Program-made: the position numbers and the translations under genes
Shown: positions 4,744 to 63,763 of the stretch, piece after piece
Layout: each line of letters starts with the position of its first letter
How positions within the stretch are numbered: the stretch's first letter is position 1
Assembly: GCA_012401045.1 (NCBI GenBank)
Contig: GCA_012401045.1_4704.2
Reading direction: 5' to 3' (one strand)
Origin: a phage
Length of the DNA stretch: 64,000 nt
Notes under the pieces: generated by a model
Database searches by the model: none
What the model was told of the DNA's origin: nothing
What the model saw: only the letters and a program-made list of their open reading frames with translations

Positions 4744-4828
4744 ACGGATGTAAAAAAAATAACACATAGTTAACCTTCTCCCCAACCCGATGAGGGAAGG
4801 GGAGAAGGGCTATGCGCTATTTAATTTA

Positions 4829-11177: not shown

Positions 11178-11197
11178 TCACCTAGGTAATGTAAGCG
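11178..11197 (-). promoter_or_regulatory. conserved TCACCTAGGTAATGTA box (third, partial copy of the cassette at 19341 and 56566)
   Basis: Near-identical 15-20 nt block shared with 19361-19380 and 56586-56605; lies upstream (minus-strand sense) of CDS 9592-11028. Confidence 0.3.
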
Positions 11198-11228
11198 TCA
11201 AATTTTTTCTATTCGCAACGATAAACGG

Positions 11229-11276
11229 CATAGAAACCTCCCCCAACCCTTGCGGGCTGAGGGAGGCTGACTTATG
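11229..11276 (-). terminator. GC-rich extended stem-loop, family member b (CATA ... TATG flanks)
   Basis: CCTCCCCC / GAGGGAGG arms with inner CCC-TTGC-GGG; ~90 nt 3' of capsid gene stop. Confidence 0.45.
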
Positions 11277-16037: not shown

Positions 16038-16075
16038 CCCTCCTCCAACCCGTAAGGGAAGGAGGAAGGTTTATG
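16038..16075 (-). terminator. GC-rich extended stem-loop, family member c
   Basis: CCCTCCTCC-AA-CCC-GTAA-GGG-AA-GGAGGAAGG then TTTATGACCGC; convergent gene ends on both sides. Confidence 0.5.
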
Positions 16076-19340: not shown

Positions 19341-19400
19341 GATAACAGTAACCGCTGTTATCACCTAGGTAATGTAGTCGCGAAATAAACTGGAGTAATG
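19341..19400 (-). promoter_or_regulatory. conserved promoter/operator-like cassette: 8-bp inverted repeat GATAACAG-N6-CTGTTATC followed by ACCTAGGTAATGTAGTCGCGAAATAAACTG
   Basis: About 60 nt block ~85% identical to 56566-56620; sits 35-95 nt upstream of CDS 18524-19306 start. Confidence 0.4.
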
Positions 19401-19413
19401 CGAAATAAGACAG

Positions 19414-19457
19414 CATAAGCCCTCTCCCAACCCGTAAGGGAAGGGAGAGGGAATATT
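19414..19457 (-). terminator. GC-rich extended stem-loop, family member d
   Basis: CATAAG-CCCTCTCCC-AA-CCC-GTAA-GGG-AA-GGGAGAGGG-AATATT; stop codon of upstream minus gene overlaps 3' flank. Confidence 0.5.
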
Positions 19458-24672: not shown

Positions 24673-24718
24673 CGCAGATTCCTGTTTGAAAGATAAGATA
24701 TCACATGATGGTCGACAG

Positions 24719-24752
24719 CATAAAGCCCACCCCGAAGGGCGGGCTGTTTATG
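24719..24752 (-). terminator. GC-rich stem-loop, family member m (diverged: GCCC-A-CCC-CGAA-GGG-C-GGGC)
   Basis: CATAAA before and TGTTTATG after the stem; directly 3' of the 1125-aa gene. Confidence 0.45.
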
Positions 24753-28153: not shown

Positions 28154-29260
28154 TTAAAAGTAATATTTCAGCGCCTCGCGAGAGACATCAAGCATAGCCG
28201 CTGTTGAATTCGTAAAGAACTCGGCATAGCCCACAAGCGGCACCTTGATCCACGCGGTATACGCTGTAAGGTATCGAGAAAGGGCTACCATAGCATCATC
28301 AGAAGCAGTAGTAACTGACAACTGACCTTGTTGACGATAAACGTCGTTAAGTTTTGCTTGTAGATTCCCTGCGATTTCGAGTAACTCGTTGGCGTACTTT
28401 TTACGATGGTAACTAACCAGTAAATCAACACCCGTATTTACCGACTCGAGTAGCACACCAACTTGTTCTAATGTTGGCATTGTAACCACCATATCCCGTT
28501 CAACGGACGGTACATCCTGGACTTCAAACCGTGCGGATTGAATAGCGAGGGACTGTTGAATTGAACCAGAACCTGAGGTGGTAACCTGATCGAGTCGTAG
28601 CGTACGGTTACCCAGTAACGTTACATTGACGAGTCTCGATTCGTTCAGCGTACTGTAGACTTTATGCAATAACGTATACGCGTCACGGTTAATCACATCG
28701 ATTAATGCGGTATCCGTCTGTTTTAAGATAATGTCGAGCGCTCTATCTAACGTATTAGCGAACTGTTTGAAATCATCACGGAACGACGAAGACAAGAGAT
28801 ATTCAGCGATTGCCAAATTCTGTTTGTATAACGTATTCCCAGTTGTGAAGTCGAATCCAAAACTGTTCCCATACCGTAGGTGCGGTGCCAGCGTTGACGA
28901 AGCTTCGAAGCTTTGCGCGATGGGTTTACGACCAACGGCTTTTGTGTAGTGACGGCGGATGTTGCTGAGTTCGAGCTGTAGTGCGCGACTACGATCGATA
29001 AACCGGGCGATAAACGCAGTGATGTTCCGCAACGTTGTCCAGATTGCATCGATGATGGCTTTGATGATTTTCATCGCAAGCTGATTGTACGATTCCATCG
29101 TGAGGAGATCAGCACTTTCCGTGGTATAACTGGTTGTCGGAATACCGCCCGCTTGCTGATAAATGAGCTGGTGAATTTGTCGTTGCGTTGCTGTCTCTGG
29201 CACAGGTAATTTTTTTAACAAGCTTAACGCTTGAATCTGTCCATCATAGGTCTGCAGCAT
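28154..29260 (-). CDS. paralogous virion protein family member (~368 aa)
   Basis: ORF track; start moved to ATG (MLQTYDG) after GAGGAAA; weak family motif. Confidence 0.8.
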   Translation of the reverse strand: MLQTYDGQIQALSLLKKLPVPETATQRQIHQLIYQQAGGIPTTSYTTESADLLTMESYNQLAMKIIKAIIDAIWTTLRNITAFIARFIDRSRALQLELSNIRRHYTKAVGRKPIAQSFEASSTLAPHLRYGNSFGFDFTTGNTLYKQNLAIAEYLLSSSFRDDFKQFANTLDRALDIILKQTDTALIDVINRDAYTLLHKVYSTLNESRLVNVTLLGNRTLRLDQVTTSGSGSIQQSLAIQSARFEVQDVPSVERDMVVTMPTLEQVGVLLESVNTGVDLLVSYHRKKYANELLEIAGNLQAKLNDVYRQQGQLSVTTASDDAMVALSRYLTAYTAWIKVPLVGYAEFFTNSTAAMLDVSREALKYYF

Positions 29261-30545
29261 TGCTGGTTTCCTCAAGTTCGAGATGCGCGTCAAGATAATC
29301 ATTAAGACCGTCGATGACGTCGCAGACAGTTAACAGGAATCGGGCAAAAGCAACCGCCTGGAAGCCGACGACGTTACGCGCGATACCCACACGTTGAACG
29401 ATAGCGGATGCGGCGGTATCGTTGTTGTCCATCTGTTGTAGCAGGCGCTCGTAAGGTTGAATCCATTCGTCCTGATCGGCAAGGCTTGCTTCAAGACAAC
29501 GTTTAAATTCCAACTGTCGTAGCGTAGACCATAACGTACTTAATGCGTTGATGATCGCGTTGGTTCCGTCGATAACATCGTTTAACGGCAAGAAACGGAA
29601 TCCGTCTTTTGCTGATTGGAAAGGTACGGCTTCCCACACAACGCTGAATTGCGTTCCTGTTGCGTCTTCGATGTTGTGTAATTTAAGATAGGAAGCACCA
29701 ACAGGTACGTCAACGACTAGATCGTCTGTTCCGGTAGGCGTTAACGGCTTCTCGCATAACGCATCGTTGATGACTTCAAGGATATTCTCCCAACAGGCTT
29801 CGTTTTCTGCAGCGATACCTTCTTTGTTATCCGCTGATGGTGCTTTTAGTAGCCGCATTAATAACGGATCGAGTTGACGATGCCACGCTGCGAGGATTCC
29901 TGTGTTCGTTACGATGTTTTCTGCGGTTTGTCGTAAATCAGCAATACTGCTTACCGCACCGCCTTTCGGATGAAGATAACGCCAGTTGTAGGGAAAGTTC
30001 TCCCAGAACGCGTTATCTTCATCGACGTCGTATTCGGAAATATTTTTCAACGCAACCGCTTTCTTTAATAACGGCTTCACCTGACGAACGAATCGACGAT
30101 AACAACGATTACAGATATCGATCGCGTAACGGTATAACTCGTTCATGTAAAGCCATAACGCTCGGGTTGCTTCTTTTGCGGTCTTGTCAAAACTTTCCAT
30201 GTTCAAGCTCATCCCGCTGGAAGTTTCCTCTTCCAGACCCTCGATGATTTGGTTTGGGTCCATCCCCATCCCGGCTGCTGCGGTTGTTGCGATATGTTTG
30301 ATGGTGTTAATATCGCGTTCTTCAACTTCAGCCATGTTTGGGACAATATCCAGCCTGAGTTTATTTAATGTTTGAAGGTGTTGTTCACCTTCTTTCATCA
30401 CCGTGTTTGTTTCGTCGATTGAGTGAAACTGATTCTCAATATTACTGGCATCGAGAACGTTGCCAGCGATACCGAACGATTCTACAGGTTCATCATCAAT
30501 CCCTTGAAATAACGATGTCATGGGTTGTTGTAACACGTTTTCCAT
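29244..30545 (-). CDS. paralogous virion protein family member (433 aa)
   Basis: ORF track; AGGAG RBS; contains one copy of the 25-nt repeat. Confidence 0.85.
   Translation of the reverse strand: MENVLQQPMTSLFQGIDDEPVESFGIAGNVLDASNIENQFHSIDETNTVMKEGEQHLQTLNKLRLDIVPNMAEVEERDINTIKHIATTAAAGMGMDPNQIIEGLEEETSSGMSLNMESFDKTAKEATRALWLYMNELYRYAIDICNRCYRRFVRQVKPLLKKAVALKNISEYDVDEDNAFWENFPYNWRYLHPKGGAVSSIADLRQTAENIVTNTGILAAWHRQLDPLLMRLLKAPSADNKEGIAAENEACWENILEVINDALCEKPLTPTGTDDLVVDVPVGASYLKLHNIEDATGTQFSVVWEAVPFQSAKDGFRFLPLNDVIDGTNAIINALSTLWSTLRQLEFKRCLEASLADQDEWIQPYERLLQQMDNNDTAASAIVQRVGIARNVVGFQAVAFARFLLTVCDVIDGLNDYLDAHLELEETSNAADL
30368..30392 (+). repeat. 25-nt exact repeat copy 1 (ATGTTTGAAGGTGTTGTTCACCTTC), inside CDS 29244-30545
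   Basis: Identical 25-mer at 51691-51715; contains 7-bp inverted repeat GAAGGTG/CACCTTC. Confidence 0.8.
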
Positions 30546-30645: not shown

Positions 30646-30689
30646 CATAAACCTTCCTCCAACCCAACAGGGAAGGAGGAAGGGATATG
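30646..30689 (-). terminator. GC-rich extended stem-loop, family member e
   Basis: CATAAA-CCTTCCTCC-AA-CCC-AACA-GGG-AA-GGAGGAAGG-GATATG. Confidence 0.5.
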
Positions 30690-33350: not shown

Positions 33351-33395
33351 CATAGAACCCTCTCCCAACCCGTCAGGGAAGGGAGAGGGGATATG
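33351..33395 (-). terminator. GC-rich extended stem-loop, family member f
   Basis: CATAGAA-CCCTCTCCC-AA-CCC-GTCA-GGG-AA-GGGAGAGGG-GATATG; only ~45 nt upstream of the next start codon. Confidence 0.5.
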
Positions 33396-41627: not shown

Positions 41628-41670
41628 CATAACCCTCCTCCAACCCAACAGGGAAGGAGGAGGGAATATG
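41628..41670 (-). terminator. GC-rich extended stem-loop, family member g
   Basis: CATAA-CCCTCCTCC-AA-CCC-AACA-GGG-AA-GGAGGAGGG-AATATG between convergent genes. Confidence 0.5.
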
Positions 41671-49322: not shown

Positions 49323-51074
49323 ATGAGCGAACAAGAACGAAAACCTAAGAAGAAACTGCTCGGTATTCAATGTCGACACATCAGCTATAACGAAGCGAAC
49401 GATGGCAGCAAGAACGACCTCATGATCGCAAAAGAGATCATGTTCTTTGATGACAATACGCAAGCGACGAACCTTCGCTTCTTTGAGAATTACAAACGTC
49501 CGTTTTGGGTGACGGTAGAGAGTAAACGTAAGAACAAATATAAAAAGGAAAGCGAGAAGCTCTCGCATGTGCGTCGCTACGATGTCCGCCAAAGCGAACT
49601 GGTTGAAAAGATCAGCTCGGTACTTTATAAAAGACGTGCTGACGATAACACCCGTTTACAGCAGCTTGCACGGAGTCCATACCTCTATGGAACGGACGTT
49701 AGCGCCAGCTGTTATTTAAAAACCCAGTACAACACAAAATGGCCGGAATACGTCGATAAATTACCCGCTTCCATTGCCTGTTTCGATATCGAAACCGACG
49801 TTGTCCACGGACACGGTAAGATCGTTTGTATGTCTATTACAATGGGATACAATGCGATACTTTGCTATACCAAGGACTTCGTTGGTCATATTCCGAATGC
49901 CATTGAGAAAACCCATGAGAAGATTCGATATTACCTGGCCGAACGTCTGAATACCAAAGAAGATCCCCACGCATTCGAAAAATATCAGTACGATGTTCGA
50001 ATCGTAGAAAGCCCGGCACAAGCGGTCATCCAATGCATGCAGAAGGTTCACGAATGGCAGCCGGATTATCTCCTTGGCTGGAATATCGCGTTCGATATTC
50101 CGCGCATGCTCCAGGCACTGAACGAGGAAGGGTATCGTCCCGAGGATGTTTTCTCCGATCCCCGTATACCACCTAAATATCGTATTGCTCGCTGGGTACC
50201 ACCGAAGACCGACAAGGTATCTGCTTCAGGTCGTAAAACCAACCTTACCCTTGAGCAAACCTGGCCGATGTTTTATACGATGGCTACGTATCAGGTTATG
50301 GATGCGATGTGTGGCTATAAGTTCGTTCGTTTAGGAAGACCGGATGAAGGACGCTATTCACTCGATGCGGTGTTAGAGCGAAATAAATGCCATACGAAAT
50401 TAAAAGCTATTCCTGGTACAGAGGGGTTCACGGAGCTTGCCTGGCACGAAGAGATGCAAACGAACCATCAAATCGACTACGGCGTATATAACCTTTGGGA
50501 TAACCAGGGTATTGAGGCGTTGGACCAGAAAACAAAAGACTATTCGATGACCATCCCTATCCGTTTAGCGGCGTCGGATTTGAAAGATTTCAGTTCTAAC
50601 CCTAAACGTATCTGCGATAAACTTTTCTTCGTTTATCTTAACCGTGGGGAAGTCATGGGATGTACCGCTGACGACATGACCCAGGAAGAAGATAAGTGGG
50701 TTATCTCACGAGCTGGACATATCGTCACATTACCATGCGATCTCATGGCTGACAACGGCATTCATCTCTTCTGGGATATGCCGAACCTGAGAAGTTATAT
50801 CCGTCTATTCGTTGCAGACCTTGACATTAGCAGTTCATACCCGAATGGGCAGATCCTGTTGAATCTATCCAGAGCGTGTGTTTTTCGCGAGCTCTCACGC
50901 ATTGAGGGCGTCTCTGACTATCAATTCAGGAAGTTAGGTATCAACTTTATTACCGGAGGTAAAACGAACGCTGTAGACTTCTGTAGAATCGTTTATAAAG
51001 CACCATCGATGTTTGAACTTTTAGAACATTTCGATGCAACGCGTCCAAAAGAGGAAGCGCGGACCATCGAATGA
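49323..51074 (+). CDS. family B DNA polymerase, N-terminal part (3'-5' exonuclease domain plus motifs A and probable B; no motif C)
   Basis: ORF track; Exo I FDIETD, Exo II NIAFD, Exo III YNLWD, motif A DLDISSSYPNG, possible motif B KLGINFITGG; protein ends ~35 aa later. Confidence 0.7.
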   Translation: MSEQERKPKKKLLGIQCRHISYNEANDGSKNDLMIAKEIMFFDDNTQATNLRFFENYKRPFWVTVESKRKNKYKKESEKLSHVRRYDVRQSELVEKISSVLYKRRADDNTRLQQLARSPYLYGTDVSASCYLKTQYNTKWPEYVDKLPASIACFDIETDVVHGHGKIVCMSITMGYNAILCYTKDFVGHIPNAIEKTHEKIRYYLAERLNTKEDPHAFEKYQYDVRIVESPAQAVIQCMQKVHEWQPDYLLGWNIAFDIPRMLQALNEEGYRPEDVFSDPRIPPKYRIARWVPPKTDKVSASGRKTNLTLEQTWPMFYTMATYQVMDAMCGYKFVRLGRPDEGRYSLDAVLERNKCHTKLKAIPGTEGFTELAWHEEMQTNHQIDYGVYNLWDNQGIEALDQKTKDYSMTIPIRLAASDLKDFSSNPKRICDKLFFVYLNRGEVMGCTADDMTQEEDKWVISRAGHIVTLPCDLMADNGIHLFWDMPNLRSYIRLFVADLDISSSYPNGQILLNLSRACVFRELSRIEGVSDYQFRKLGINFITGGKTNAVDFCRIVYKAPSMFELLEHFDATRPKEEARTIE

Positions 51075-51112
51075 TTCAAGTAGGTTGATCCTCGCTTAAC
51101 AAAAAAGAAAAC

Positions 51113-51165
51113 ACATGCGAAGCCCCTCCCCCTGGCGGAAGCCGGAGGGAGGGGTGAGGTTTATG
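51113..51165 (-). terminator. GC-rich extended stem-loop, family member h (GGAA tetraloop)
   Basis: CATGCGAAG-CCCCTCCC...GGC-GGAA-GCC...GGGAGGGG-TGAGGTTTATG between convergent genes. Confidence 0.45.
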
Positions 51166-51646
51166 CGCGTTCGTTACCAACCGTTACTTTGTAGTCAGCG
51201 TCGGTTAAGAAAATAGACAGGAATCCATGTTCTTTGCAAATCTTACTAAGGATGTCAGCAATGATTTCGTTGATCATCGGCTTGTTTGCAAGGGCATAGA
51301 TGTACCCGGGTGTAAAAGAAAGTGCGTGATTGATCATAGGCTCATGAGAAGCCAAGATAAGGATCACGTGATGCTTCCCATCGTCGGTAACGACCGCTTG
51401 CGTAGACACGAAGAAATCAGTGAAGCAGCAGCGATCACAGGCTTTAGGTATATACAAGTCACCCAGAGCTTCGTCACGTGCTTTTACGTGTGTTTCAGGG
51501 GTGATGCTGCTAAGTTGATCTTCAGCGAGATCCAAGACATCCTCAATCGTTTTAAGAATAGCGTTGCGGAAATCCTCACGGTAGAATGGGATGATATCAC
51601 GATCGTTCATGTAATCGCCGGATTCGATAGTAAAGTTGATGTTCAT
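51161..51646 (-). CDS. hypothetical protein (161 aa)
   Basis: ORF track; AGGAG RBS. Confidence 0.75.
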   Translation of the reverse strand: MNINFTIESGDYMNDRDIIPFYREDFRNAILKTIEDVLDLAEDQLSSITPETHVKARDEALGDLYIPKACDRCCFTDFFVSTQAVVTDDGKHHVILILASHEPMINHALSFTPGYIYALANKPMINEIIADILSKICKEHGFLSIFLTDADYKVTVGNERA

Positions 51647-51690
51647 TGAATGCTCCTAGTGGTTATGTCGATTGATCGATGTATTGATTT

Positions 51691-51715
51691 ATGTTTGAAG
51701 GTGTTGTTCACCTTC
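51691..51715 (+). repeat. 25-nt exact repeat copy 2 (intergenic)
   Basis: Identical to 30368-30392; between stop of 51717-52181 and start of 51161-51646. Confidence 0.8.
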
Positions 51716-51716
51716 G

Positions 51717-52181
51717 TTAGATATCGTCATCCGTGGTGCCGTAGGACATATGCTGAATTAATTTTCTCGGCTCGATGAAAATACGACATGTGATAAACAC
51801 ATCGGGATCGTATTGCTCCACGCAACGTCCGAAGGTTTGTTTTGCGGCTTGGCGCATCGATGTTATTTCCTGATCGTTCATCGCATTATCGAATTCGATG
51901 TTGATCGTGATTTTATCGGGAAATAAATAGATAAAGTAATCGCCGCTGATACCACCATCATCAAAGTGACGTTCATTGTAGCACTGGACGAGCTTACCTT
52001 CACGTTCTTTCTGATACCATCCAAGGATACTATTAAGACCTCTGTCCACGCATTCGAATGCTTGAGTAATAACATCCTCAACGACGGATGCAGGCGTGGG
52101 ACCATTGAATAGACGATCTAAGCGCTTTTTCATCGATTTGGTTTTCTCGTTCATGATTTCTTTTCCTGTTATAATCGGCAT
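51717..52181 (-). CDS. hypothetical protein (154 aa)
   Basis: ORF track. Confidence 0.75.
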   Translation of the reverse strand: MPIITGKEIMNEKTKSMKKRLDRLFNGPTPASVVEDVITQAFECVDRGLNSILGWYQKEREGKLVQCYNERHFDDGGISGDYFIYLFPDKITINIEFDNAMNDQEITSMRQAAKQTFGRCVEQYDPDVFITCRIFIEPRKLIQHMSYGTTDDDI

Positions 52182-52221
52182 ACAACCCTTCCCCGGCCTG
52201 ATGGCTAGGGAAGGGGCTATG
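52179..52221 (-). terminator. GC-rich extended stem-loop, family member i (diverged)
   Basis: CATACAA-CCCTTCCCC...GGGAAGGGG-CTATG. Confidence 0.4.
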
Positions 52222-52229
52222 CTACGTTG

Positions 52230-52628
52230 TTATGCTTCGCAATCAGCTGAAGGCGTCGCGCCTTTCTTACCAGCGATACACCAAATCCGACACGCTGGGT
52301 AATGGTTAACCTCTAGAGAGCAAGGAATGTTATATTTCTCTTCCAGCGCATAAAGACATTTCGTTAGCTGCTCCAGCGCGTTCTCGTCGTGTCGTAACGC
52401 GTGGTGGCCTAATCGATGTTGGTCGTTCTTTATATACGCCTCGAAGAGAACATGTTGGCGATGTACGCTGACGTTTACAGCCTCGAGTATAGCTTGGTCG
52501 AGCATACGACTAAAGCACATCAACGAGTCAGATACGTTTTCTCGCTTAACCAGATCAATCATGGCGGGAATATACGAATGGTCGATGTTATCGATGACCG
52601 CTTTAGCGACGGAATCAGCAACGTTCAT
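52230..52628 (-). CDS. small protein, tandem paralog family A (copy 1)
   Basis: ORF track; start moved to internal Met to match paralog; MNVADSVAKAVIDNIDH versus MSIVESIVKAVNDNIDH. Confidence 0.7.
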   Translation of the reverse strand: MNVADSVAKAVIDNIDHSYIPAMIDLVKRENVSDSLMCFSRMLDQAILEAVNVSVHRQHVLFEAYIKNDQHRLGHHALRHDENALEQLTKCLYALEEKYNIPCSLEVNHYPACRIWCIAGKKGATPSADCEA

Positions 52629-52664
52629 CTTTTTAATCCCTAGTTTGTTATTGATCACGTATAT

Positions 52665-53060
52665 TTACTCTTTGACGTCAGTTGTCGTTTCGACATGCTT
52701 CTCACTACTGACGTACCAGAGCAGGTACGCTGGGAAAAGATTGACCTCTAAGCTAAATGGAATATTGTATTTCTCTTCCATTTTACAGAGATGTTCTTTA
52801 AGTAAATTTCTCGCGTCTCTGTCACCACGAACAGAGTGCCAGTCTAGTTCTTTGTTCTCCTTTACCAGGACCTCTACGATGATACGTTGCTCGTGAACCT
52901 CGGTTTTCACAGTGAAAAGTAAATCGCTGCTATCAAAACGGGTAAAACGAATGTATGAACCAGGTGTTTTTTCTTGTTTAATAATATCGATCATGGTAGA
53001 AATGCGCGGATGATCGATGTTGTCGTTAACAGCTTTAACGATGGATTCTACAATGCTCAT
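52665..53060 (-). CDS. small protein, tandem paralog family A (copy 2)
   Basis: ORF track; EEKYNIPFSLEVNLFPA versus EEKYNIPCSLEVNHYPA. Confidence 0.75.
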   Translation of the reverse strand: MSIVESIVKAVNDNIDHPRISTMIDIIKQEKTPGSYIRFTRFDSSDLLFTVKTEVHEQRIIVEVLVKENKELDWHSVRGDRDARNLLKEHLCKMEEKYNIPFSLEVNLFPAYLLWYVSSEKHVETTTDVKE

Positions 53061-56565: not shown

Positions 56566-56620
56566 GATAAGATATTTTGCTCTTATCACTAAGGTAATGT
56601 AGTCGCGAAATAAACTGCGT
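56566..56620 (-). promoter_or_regulatory. conserved promoter/operator-like cassette: inverted repeat GATAAGA-N8-TCTTATC followed by ACTAAGGTAATGTAGTCGCGAAATAAACTG
   Basis: ~85% identical to 19341-19400; upstream of CDS 56093-56518. Confidence 0.4.
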
Positions 56621-56639
56621 TAACACGAAATAAAAACAG

Positions 56640-56698
56640 CATAGAACCCTCCTCCCCCATCCTTCAAGAGGACGGTGGGAAGAGGGAGAGATTAAATG
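56640..56698 (-). terminator. GC-rich stem-loop, family member j (enlarged and diverged)
   Basis: CATAGAA-CCCTCCTCCCCC...GGGAAGAGGGAGAG-ATTAAATG. Confidence 0.35.
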
Positions 56699-57093: not shown

Positions 57094-57140
57094 GGAGTGC
57101 TTGTCCTATTTTTATTTTCTGCACAGGATAAATTCAACGG

Positions 57141-57185
57141 CATAAAGCCCTTCCCTGCCCTTATATGGGGCGGGAAGAGTTTATG
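57141..57185 (-). terminator. GC-rich extended stem-loop, family member k
   Basis: CATAAAG-CCCTTCCC-TGCCC-TTATAT-GGGGC-GGGAAGAG-TTTATGACCGC. Confidence 0.45.
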
Positions 57186-59273: not shown

Positions 59274-60152
59274 TTAAACCCGGGTCAGGTCACCGTGACG
59301 TGAAACGAACTCTGATAACGCTCGGGTTGCTTCTTTGGATTCTTCAGCCATCGGGAAGTTTGCGGTAATAAGTTCTCGTAAGACAGGGACGAGTTCATTA
59401 TCTTCGAGATCGGAAGCTAAGGCGAATGCAATCAGTTCTTGGGTGTATGCATACGGTTGCTGACGTAATGCAGTAAGCTGATCCCGACACTGCGACATTA
59501 GCAGGTCCAGTGGAACCGCTATCGTACCCCCTTCATCAATATACTGGCTGAACACCGGTGGGAACGCATCGCTGATGACACGAATACGTCGACGAATATG
59601 ATCCGGAATCTGGACGTTTTCTTCGTCGGCGACGTTTTCGCTATCTTTCTCCAGCTTCTTGGTCAGTACCTGCTGGATACGTGGGAGCAGGCTTGAATGC
59701 ACAAAACTGATTAATGATGCTACGTCCACAGCATCGACACCGTAAATATAATGCGCGCATTCCGCTAGCGCTTCAGCTGCGGTGTAGTCTTCATCTTCAA
59801 CGATAGCGAGTAGAAAAGCGGTATCGTCGTGTGTTTCCAGGTCTAATAACGTAGACGCTAGCGCATGAAGATATTTCAGGCTATCCAGAGTTAGCTGCCC
59901 TTCGTTAATTCGGATCCCGAAGGCAAGCAATTGTTGTTTATAAAGTTCGATACATCCGTTTGTTAAAATGATGTCTAATTCGTTTAAATCGTATTGTTCC
60001 CCAGCACCTGACAACATCGTACTGCAGAACGTTTCCAGTTGTTCACATTTAAAATCTTGGTATAAACGATGCATGCAGTGCTGTAACAGCGTACGCCTTG
60101 TTTCAGGGATCTTACCTTCTAACAAAGCCAAGACGGAATCAATCATATCCAC
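59274..60152 (-). CDS. hypothetical protein (292 aa)
   Basis: ORF track. Confidence 0.8.
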   Translation of the reverse strand: MDMIDSVLALLEGKIPETRRTLLQHCMHRLYQDFKCEQLETFCSTMLSGAGEQYDLNELDIILTNGCIELYKQQLLAFGIRINEGQLTLDSLKYLHALASTLLDLETHDDTAFLLAIVEDEDYTAAEALAECAHYIYGVDAVDVASLISFVHSSLLPRIQQVLTKKLEKDSENVADEENVQIPDHIRRRIRVISDAFPPVFSQYIDEGGTIAVPLDLLMSQCRDQLTALRQQPYAYTQELIAFALASDLEDNELVPVLRELITANFPMAEESKEATRALSEFVSRHGDLTRV

Positions 60153-63342: not shown

Positions 63343-63385
63343 CATAACCCTCCTCCAACCCGTAAGGGAAGGAGGAGGGCTTATG
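63343..63385 (-). terminator. GC-rich extended stem-loop, family member l
   Basis: CATAA-CCCTCCTCC-AA-CCC-GTAA-GGG-AA-GGAGGAGGG-CTTATG between convergent genes. Confidence 0.5.
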
Positions 63386-63388
63386 CTG

Positions 63389-63763
63389 TTAATGTTCGTT
63401 CCAGATGGCATCTTCCGGTGGAACAATAGGATCTTTCTTCGGCATTGACGGTACTTCATGACGATGCTTACGGAATTGCCTATCGATAACCTCACGAAGC
63501 CGGTACGCATCAACCCATGTTGATTTATTGAACAGCTCCAATGTCACAGTTAATCGTGTTCTTGACATTGAATAGCTTTTCTTTGCAATCAAATTGGGAT
63601 AATTCAGTTGAGCGAACCACGCACGTATTTGTGCTTCGGTAAAAGCGATGCTGTAATAACTAAGTTTACCGTCATTAAAATCGTGCGCGTGGGTGTAACG
63701 TCCAGCGTAACGCCAGACAAGATGCACATTCAGATCGATCCATGGTGGGGTGGTATCAGCCAT
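63389..63763 (-). CDS. hypothetical protein (124 aa)
   Basis: ORF track. Confidence 0.7.
   Translation of the reverse strand: MADTTPPWIDLNVHLVWRYAGRYTHAHDFNDGKLSYYSIAFTEAQIRAWFAQLNYPNLIAKKSYSMSRTRLTVTLELFNKSTWVDAYRLREVIDRQFRKHRHEVPSMPKKDPIVPPEDAIWNEH

Follow-up and report, generated by a model that had tools for sequence, protein, structure and literature searches.

A 25-nt repeat shared by an inner-body-like protein gene and a small-gene junction in a Goslar-like jumbo phage may evolve in concert

Stem-loops that sit between small genes are known from the T4-type phages, where the promoter-early stem-loop (PeSL) cassettes occur at ~50 per genome and combine a strong sigma-70-like promoter with a G/C-rich terminator stem (Arbiol et al., 2010, PMC2839356; Comeau et al., 2014, PMC4122927). 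Chimalliviruses rely on RNA polymerases of their own for transcription, and TATG at the start site is the core of phiKZ-type late promoters (PMC7598289). Other systems with which a short repeated hairpin may be compared are the antisense-RNA control by kissing loops of the CopA/CopT and RNA I/RNA II type, the small inversions flanked by inverted repeats (hairpin flip-flop) of organelle and phage DNA, and the concerted evolution of dispersed repeats through conversion. In this work, we compared with these systems a repeat in a 64-kb window (the whole stretch of 64,000 nt analyzed here). The window is ~92% identical to Escherichia phage vB_EcoM_Goslar and evidently belongs to a Goslar-like nucleus-forming jumbo phage.

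A sequence-only reading of this DNA had reported an exact 25-nt repeat, and a scan of the window upheld the report. The 25-mer ATGTTTGAAGGTGTTGTTCACCTTC has two exact matches (30368-30392 and 51691-51715), both on the + strand and 21 kb apart. The exact and fuzzy search that had been suggested as a check gave these two copies and no third one in the window with up to three mismatches allowed, and none of 100 dinucleotide-preserving shuffles gave a match. The remaining details of that description were also correct, namely, the coordinates, the encoded peptide EGEQHLQT, the distance of ~45 nt upstream of a gene, and the inverted repeat. Both host genes are on the minus strand, and in gene sense the repeat reads GAAGGTGAACAACACCTTCAAACAT. 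Each copy contains the inverted repeat (GAAGGTG/CACCTTC; 7 bp with a 5-nt loop), which the window has at no other place. A local gapped alignment of 30360-30395 with 51684-51718 has 33 of 36 columns alike, and its score of 55 compares with a null maximum of 27 in 500 shuffles. The left flank beyond the core, when tested alone, had no significant or robust homology in any allele. The 25-mer match is not a product of chance, and the two copies share evolutionary history. No further copies were found elsewhere in Goslar or in other phages, and Goslar itself has site 1 and a leader remnant only. The features of the two sites are as follows.

29244..30545, minus strand: gp55 homologue (Goslar_00055), 433 aa, which holds copy 1
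30360..30395, minus strand: full similarity to site 2, containing the 29-nt run 30364-30392
30368..30392, minus strand: copy 1 of the 25-mer, gp55 codons 52-59 and the first base of codon 60
30374..30380 and 30386..30392, minus strand: arms of the copy 1 hairpin, with the loop at 30381-30385
51161..51646, minus strand: gp70 homologue (Goslar_00070), an ORFan of 161 aa downstream of copy 2
51667..51690, minus strand: conserved gp70 leader AAATCAATACATCGATCAATCGAC, -44 to -21 from the ATG
51684..51718, minus strand: full similarity to site 1
51691..51715, minus strand: copy 2 of the 25-mer (S1 allele), the hairpin and the first 6 nt of the gp70 leader
51697..51715, minus strand: copy 2 hairpin, with arms at 51697-51703 and 51709-51715, then AAACAT (51691-51696) in gene sense
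51717..52154, minus strand: gp71 homologue (Goslar_00071), an ORFan of 145 aa as called in relatives

The genes at the two sites are of different kinds. Goslar gp53-gp58 share the PF12699 (phiKZ internal-protein) fold, and gp55 is an inner-body-like virion protein with ~50 copies per virion (2026 virion preprint, 10.64898/2026.04.21.720040). The gp70 homologue of the window is identical in protein sequence to Goslar_00070. For gp71, the mechanical ORF extends to 52181. Searches of gp70 and gp71 gave no matches in Pfam, PHROG, or PDB, no nucleic-acid-binding domain, and no informative fold match, and the idea of either protein as a regulator was dropped for want of such matches. The gp70 structure model was too poor for a fold search. 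The gp71 model is confident (pLDDT 77), and its sole resemblance is to another small Goslar ORFan (TM 0.64), which marks the gp70/gp71 region as an array of divergent small paralogues, the gene content of which differs among genomes.

Copy 1 is read in frame as GAA GGT GAA CAA CAC CTT CAA ACA and was found in every relative examined, through exact scans of IMG/VR and JGI metagenomes and in further lineages. A second clade is represented by contigs of ~245-248 kb from Salmonella, Shigella, and E. coli assemblies, in which gp55 has 86% amino acid and 80.3% nucleotide identity and the peptide DETNTVMKEGEQHLQTLNKLRLDIVPNM is invariant. Because the peptide of this segment is invariant at such divergence and the segment is present in all genomes examined, we conclude that copy 1 is native, old, and ordinary gp55 coding sequence. 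Within gp55, 17 of the 25 positions of copy 1 are non-synonymous, with eight synonymous sites. A comparison of gp55 between the window and the outgroup L027 (80% identical) has 257 differences in 1302 nt, and only five of 1278 25-nt segments are difference-free (starts at gene positions 153-157). The 25-mer starts at gene position 153, inside the 29-nt run that is the longest identical stretch of gp55 against L027. In a wider comparison of 4.3 kb, 116 of 4282 such segments are difference-free, nearly all in one conserved gp54/gp53 block, and the frozen-run statistic is weaker under this null, which counts against concerted evolution. The conservation of copy 1 is unusual for gp55 and overall only moderately significant (p ~0.004 to 0.03). 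The notion that the 25-mer is completely frozen in gp55 holds for the window against L027 and was abandoned on the CAG codon of L041, L042, and L043.

Copy 2 is located in the 70-nt spacer between the gp71 and gp70 homologues, starting 1 nt past the gp71 TAA (51717-51719) and ending 44 nt before the gp70 ATG. Its hairpin has a 7-bp stem and a 5-nt loop (-8.4 kcal/mol), and the stem is followed by AAACAUAAAU in place of a U-run. A scan for rho-independent terminators called neither copy; the evident terminator-like hairpins of the window have GC-rich stems of 10-14 bp with TATG directly after. No sigma-70-like promoter was found in 51000-52400, and the element had no match in Rfam. With nothing called by these scans, terminator, sigma-70 promoter, and Rfam family were rejected as the class of the element. 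In the stem, no pair changed on both sides among the alleles; six of the seven pairs are invariant and one is broken in S3 (see below). A TATG is found at 51690-51693 on the + strand only, opposite to the genes; copy 1 reads AATG at this point, and the TATG is lost at site 2 in L019, L040, and L038. Site 2 has no conserved TATG on the gene strand of the kind that marks phiKZ-type late promoters. The site-2 hairpin would be at most a weak intercistronic mRNA structure, and not a standard terminator. A mini-ORF reading M(T)ISNEGEQHLQT* was dropped, having no RBS and no support. ChmC eCLIP work has been done in PhiPA3, where it found no defined binding motif, and it offers nothing usable for Goslar.

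Diverse alleles are found at site 2 among the relatives. The S1 allele, identical at 25 of 25 nt, is present in eight of the 10 contigs that encode an identical gp70. In genomes with gp70 of 78-83% identity, the same position is occupied by S2 (L032-L035; GAAGGTG-AACAG-CACCTTC), by S3 (L029-L031; GATGGTG-TTGCT-CACCTTC), or by the degenerate hairpin M (L036-L038). S3 corresponds to a flip of the whole hairpin, with a reverse complement that is two mismatches from S1, compared with six when read directly. The L type, which has no hairpin, is found in Goslar, L019, and L040 as a 110-nt spacer with a promoter-like conserved block (CGCCRAGAGCCTTATTTRTRGTTTCAAGTATACCYCATC); L008 and L039 have this block too, there following another upstream gene. 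The L and M alleles retain only the right arm and the leader, with the left arm replaced.

All allele types (S, L, and M) match the leader at 19-21 of its 24 positions and have C(C/T)(A/T)TCAAACATAAAT.AATACRTCAATCAATCGACA in common, and the RBS region (51647-51666) is much less conserved (10-15 of 20 positions in S2, S3, M, and L039). The 25-mer at site 2 is accordingly made up of a hairpin specific to the S type and the first six bases of a leader that is conserved independently of the upstream context, and these comparisons support a conserved gp70 leader that may or may not be headed by a stem-loop. By BLASTP, the gene upstream of S1 is not homologous to those upstream of S2/S3, and their last codons, GGATGA(CGA)TATCTAA, are all that they share. 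The window agrees with S2 at 18/19 positions of the hairpin, 6/6 of AAACAT, and 21/24 of the leader (together 45/49); outside this core, the agreement drops to 10/20 for the RBS region and 13/20 for the end of the upstream gene, and gp70 is ~80% identical. These patterns indicate that the hairpin, the leader, and gp70 recombine as one module within a variable array of small ORFans, and the last codons of gp71 (GGATGACGATATCTAA) are part of the recombining hairpin module. A tie to the neighboring HNH/NUMOD1 homing endonuclease was rejected because genomes with and without this gene do not divide along the S and L alleles. We also considered an ancestral duplication of ~60 nt into the gp71 C-terminus (Goslar IDESNKG* against gp55 IDETNTV; score 28, 0 of 500 shuffles). 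This was ruled out as not robust without the 25-mer and absent from the other alleles, and with it fell a related proposal, a fossil C-terminal extension of gp71.

The two copies share a polymorphism. Among nine gp55 lineages, the sole variable base in the 25-mer is a synonymous CAA/CAG difference, with GAA CAG CAC at site 1 in L041 and L042. It has the same position and the same base as the difference between the S1 and S2 loops (AACAA/AACAG) at site 2, and the window has AACAA at both copies. All five contigs with the gp55 variant P0025 read GAAGGTGAACAGCACCTTCAAACAT, identical to the S2 intergenic 25-mer. The association between the sites was built on locus tags, contig sizes, and protein similarity, and the sites were read on separate contigs. 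gp55 P0025 and gp70 P0056 have the same longest contig size (247,732 nt) and the same sources, and gp55 P0020 (OOS50_004020) and gp70 P0054 (OOS50_004035) come from one E. coli O157 assembly (89,464-nt contig). gp70 P0054 and P0056 are one and five residues, respectively, from P0036, which was read as S2 on four contigs, and each differs from the S3 type by at least 30 residues. gp55 P0025 and P0020 are one and five residues from P0013, which was read as CAG, and 15-17 residues from P0024, which was read as CAA. By this evidence, the CAG lineage of gp55 appears to be linked to gp70 modules of the AACAG type, with copies that are identical within a genome and differ between lineages. Likeness within genomes and shared polymorphism, which characterize concerted evolution, are seen here via indirect lineage linkage.

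The chance of an independent single change at the same position and to the same base is 0.013-0.10, depending on the positions taken as free. The co-variation is a single shared substitution, and a parallel mutation with p up to 0.1 counts against concerted evolution. Genomes of the S3 type, with the flipped hairpin, are linked to CAA-type gp55 and their two copies are not identical, so identity of the copies is not universal. Complete E. coli genomes, plasmids, and GTDB genomes were searched for both sites and gave no matches; the matches in IMG/VR belong to the AACAA clade only. Another repeat in gp55, D11 (22 nt; 30155-30176 and 59315-59336), encodes KEATRAL at both places. It was rejected as a second example because synonymous sites of its gp55 copy differ freely from one lineage to another (20/22 positions kept in Goslar and in the outgroup) and its two proteins are unrelated, and it was used as a control.

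We consider short-patch recombination the most likely source of the repeat, in preference to a dedicated signal. More specifically, we see about an even chance that the 25-mer is a short dispersed repeat of two copies that evolve in concert via ectopic short-tract gene conversion or templated re-copying. The identity of the copies would be kept or repeatedly restored by exchange across ~25-36 nt of homology in the highly recombinogenic pool of replicating phage genomes. Against this reading, tracts of 25-36 nt come close to the shortest homology that permits such exchange. Variants of copy 1 would be filtered by protein-coding selection and those of copy 2 by constraint on the stem-loop and leader, such that neutral changes, at a synonymous site that is also a loop base, could spread to both copies. 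The simplest reading of the direction of transfer may be that copy 1 acts as the selected master. A crossover between these direct repeats would remove 21.3 kb of DNA and with it the DNA polymerase gene (49323-51074); such a loss is presumably lethal, so only non-crossover outcomes would be seen. Concerted evolution would account for the exact identity despite 20% background divergence, for synonymous sites that are unusually well conserved at copy 1, for the shared polymorphism, and for the absence of signs of a dispersed motif family.

Three alternatives were weighed against this reading. The first is an old duplication after which each site was under its own purifying selection and the copies no longer exchanged sequence; coding constraint would act on copy 1 and structural or leader constraint on copy 2, and the A/G difference would be a parallel transition or a linkage artefact. 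This is consistent with the large share of non-synonymous positions in gp55 (17/25), with stems and AAACAT that are invariant among the S alleles except for one S3 stem mismatch, with a parallel-hit chance that reaches 0.1 if the loop positions alone are free, and with a frozen-run p of only ~0.03 against the broader null. However, this model leaves eight synonymous sites of copy 1 and five loop bases of copy 2 free to vary, yet the copies are identical at 25 of 25 positions in the lineage of the window, and apparently also in the CAG/AACAG lineage, at ~20% background divergence. Without exchange, all 13 of these free positions would have had to remain as they were, with a parallel hit in addition, and the control repeat D11 in the same gene does vary freely at synonymous sites. 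We regard such a history as unlikely. The sequence-only reading had offered a recombination footprint as one of three possible roles, and this came closest, with the amendment that the evidence describes an old and recurrent relationship instead of a one-off scar, namely, a hairpin in lineages with gp70 78-83% identical and an A/G polymorphism common to both copies. A single recent recombination or template-switch scar, confined to the lineage of the window and with no further history, was suggested by the absence of copy 2 from Goslar, an absence shared with six other genomes in exact scans, and by the position at a recombination junction where the gp71 3′ end differs from that of Goslar. It was rejected on the divergent S2, S3, and M alleles, which are variants of the hairpin's own at the same position, with gp70 at 78-83% identity and behind a different upstream gene family, and we consider it very improbable.

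The other two roles that had been proposed, a protein-binding site and a short antisense-pairing region, bear on the possibility that both copies are one functional cis-element for a common trans factor, such as an RNA- or DNA-binding protein or an antisense RNA acting through loop-loop kissing. Selection for matching sequence, and not gene conversion, would then yield the co-varying loop base, as a pairing interaction also predicts co-variation at a loop position. Copy 1 does lie in the gp55 DNA stretch most conserved between the clades, synonymous sites included, the hairpin and leader form an island of conservation at site 2, and an antisense RNA started at the + strand TATG (51690-51693) would have the repeat at its beginning. 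Against this stand the restriction to two copies in the window with none in the rest of Goslar or in other phages, the stem pairs without covariation (six of seven invariant, one broken), the loss of the + strand TATG in three relatives, and the L and M genomes that lack the site-2 hairpin; a flip as in S3 would also swap the complementary strand. The genes at the two sites are co-directional and the repeat reads alike on the sense strand of both. The two mRNAs are therefore same-sense and identical over the repeat, without the complementarity of an antisense RNA and its target, and pairing would need an antisense transcript, which leaves the antisense-pairing proposal unsupported in its original form. 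For a protein-binding site, or a shared regulatory site in general, we found no positive support, given two copies only, the lack of stem covariation and of a terminator or promoter consensus, the empty Rfam search, the lack of a nucleic-acid-binding domain or informative fold match in gp70/gp71, and a gp70 model too poor for such a search. A common cis-element is in our judgment improbable. Its more specific form, in which the hairpin is a regulatory link between the accessory cassette and gp55 and a factor or TATG-started antisense RNA recognizes the 25-29-nt element both in the gp70 leader and in the gp55 mRNA, with a loop base under selection for matching, e.g., by kissing, seems quite doubtful.

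If concerted evolution of the two copies is correct, ~25-36 nt of homology would be enough for exchange between distant sites in a nucleus-forming jumbo phage, and short-tract exchange could freeze synonymous sites in a structural gene. A frozen patch in phage coding sequence would then not need to be a functional element when conservation is interpreted. It would also bear on the shuffling of ORFan cassettes and junction elements in chimalliviruses, and for phage engineering, it would mean that short repeats may be unstable or serve as conversion donors. If the regulatory reading were true instead, the repeat would be the first cis-regulatory link from an accessory cassette to an inner-body protein gene in this phage family (chimalliviruses).

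Among the known systems, the PeSL cassettes resemble site 2 in several ways. Copy 2 places a stem-loop between genes, directly before an ORFan, in a small-gene array of variable content; in different genomes, the site-2 element adjoins unrelated upstream genes, and the junctions fall within the stem-loop or beside it; and the alleles include L and M, which keep the right arm and replace the left, and S3, in which the hairpin is flipped. Unlike PeSL, the element here has two copies (one of them coding), no recognizable promoter, and a stem that is weak (-8.4 kcal/mol) and lacks a U-run. As the defining copy number, promoter, and terminator strength are lacking, it is not filed as a PeSL, and the units of a GC-rich hairpin and TATG are the closer PeSL analogues in the window. 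The control systems of the CopA/CopT and RNA I/RNA II type are similar in having a short hairpin with a loop base that co-varies between two sites, but here both transcripts are of the same sense, an antisense RNA is not known, and related genomes can do without the hairpin or have it flipped. Hairpin flip-flop predicts exactly the change seen in S3, and it explains this variant only, not the identity of the two copies. Compared with the conversion of dispersed repeats, the tract is unusually short (25-36 nt), the pair consists of a coding and a non-coding copy 21 kb apart, and conversion itself is inferred. The likeness to concerted evolution lies in copies that are apparently identical within a genome, in lineages that differ at the same base, and in one copy that is under coding selection and can act as the master.

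The DNA polymerase open reading frame (ORF) is intact in the window (49323-51074; 583 aa, phrog_3011), whereas in Goslar and many relatives the ORF at this place is 499 aa long and precedes a free-standing HNH_3/NUMOD1 homing endonuclease gene that occurs in variants of 368, 378, 396, and 403 aa. Based on comparison of the window with loci L014, L016, L019-L023, and L029-L040 of related phages, this difference is a presence/absence polymorphism of a homing endonuclease gene adjoining the gp70 homolog. Within this same set, presence or absence of the endonuclease did not track the hairpin (S) and promoter-like (L) alleles of site 2, the intergenic copy of the 25-nt repeat.

The small ORFans near site 2 (51161-53060; Goslar gp70-gp74) appear to be divergent paralogs. 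The gp71 model matched a 163-aa Goslar protein with a TM score of 0.64 at 15% identity, and the secondary-structure elements of gp70 follow the same order. Additionally, the gene upstream of site 2 belongs to family A in some genomes and to family B in others. In one Logan contig (L033:1143-1454), the upstream gene is frameshifted and the called ORF crosses the hairpin in the gp55 frame, ending in NEGEQHLQT with a TAA stop that arises from ACA TAA AT. The corresponding stretch of the window is:

ca. 51688-51729, counterpart of the L033 read-through

All S-type alleles contain a mini-ORF of 12-13 codons in the gp55 frame, M(T)ISNEGEQHLQT plus stop, and in these alleles it has no ribosome-binding site.

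A second exact repeat also involves gp55. The 22-nt sequence ATAACGCTCGGGTTGCTTCTTT occurs at 30155-30176, in the gp55 gene, and at 59315-59336, in the 3' part of an unrelated gene (292 aa, phrog_5038); both copies encode KEATRAL in the same reading frame. The phrog_5038 copy is invariant among four genomes. The gp55 copy matches at 20 of 22 positions in Goslar, the related locus L011, and the outgroup, and the differences are synonymous.

In the neighboring gp54 homolog (28154-29302), 92 nt (28215-28306, minus strand) show no difference from the outgroup L027, which is 80% identical. This is by far the longest identity between the two in 4.3 kb, and gp54 and gp53 contain further identical runs close by, each 24-41 nt long. 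The 92-nt run could reflect either local recombination or strong constraint on this segment.

Near-complete Goslar-like genomes (contigs of 208-248 kb) were found in many NCBI assemblies labeled E. coli, Shigella, or Salmonella (loci L016-L018, L020, L023, and L042; protein variants P0006, P0015, P0020, P0026, and P0039-P0042), which suggests that these lytic jumbo phages are carried by, or co-cultured with, isolates of clinical or food origin.

Strong GC-rich hairpins, e.g., CCCTCCTCCAACCCGTAAGGGAAGGAGGAGGG, form a family in the window, and the motif (T)TATGC(Y)G follows each member on the gene strand. In three spacers, a conserved intergenic element of 26-55 nt, containing TTTATTTCGCGACTACATTACCTAGGTGATAA in gene sense, lies immediately downstream of such a unit.

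Hairpin + TATG units (positions approximate) and intergenic elements.
4760-4810, hairpin + TATG
11178-11203, TTTATTTCGCGACTACATTACCTAGGTGATAA element
11220-11260, hairpin + TATG
16038-16075, hairpin + TATG
19354-19408, TTTATTTCGCGACTACATTACCTAGGTGATAA element
19410-19451, hairpin + TATG
24700-24740, hairpin + TATG
30646-30689, hairpin + TATG
33353-33395, hairpin + TATG
41628-41670, hairpin + TATG
56579-56633, TTTATTTCGCGACTACATTACCTAGGTGATAA element
56620-56680, hairpin + TATG
57120-57170, hairpin + TATG
63343-63389, hairpin + TATG

The intergenic element may be a phage-specific promoter motif, perhaps an early one. The hairpin + TATG units look like composites of a terminator and a phiKZ-type TATG start site, and they are the nearest analog in the window to the promoter-early stem-loop (PeSL) cassettes of T4-type phages.
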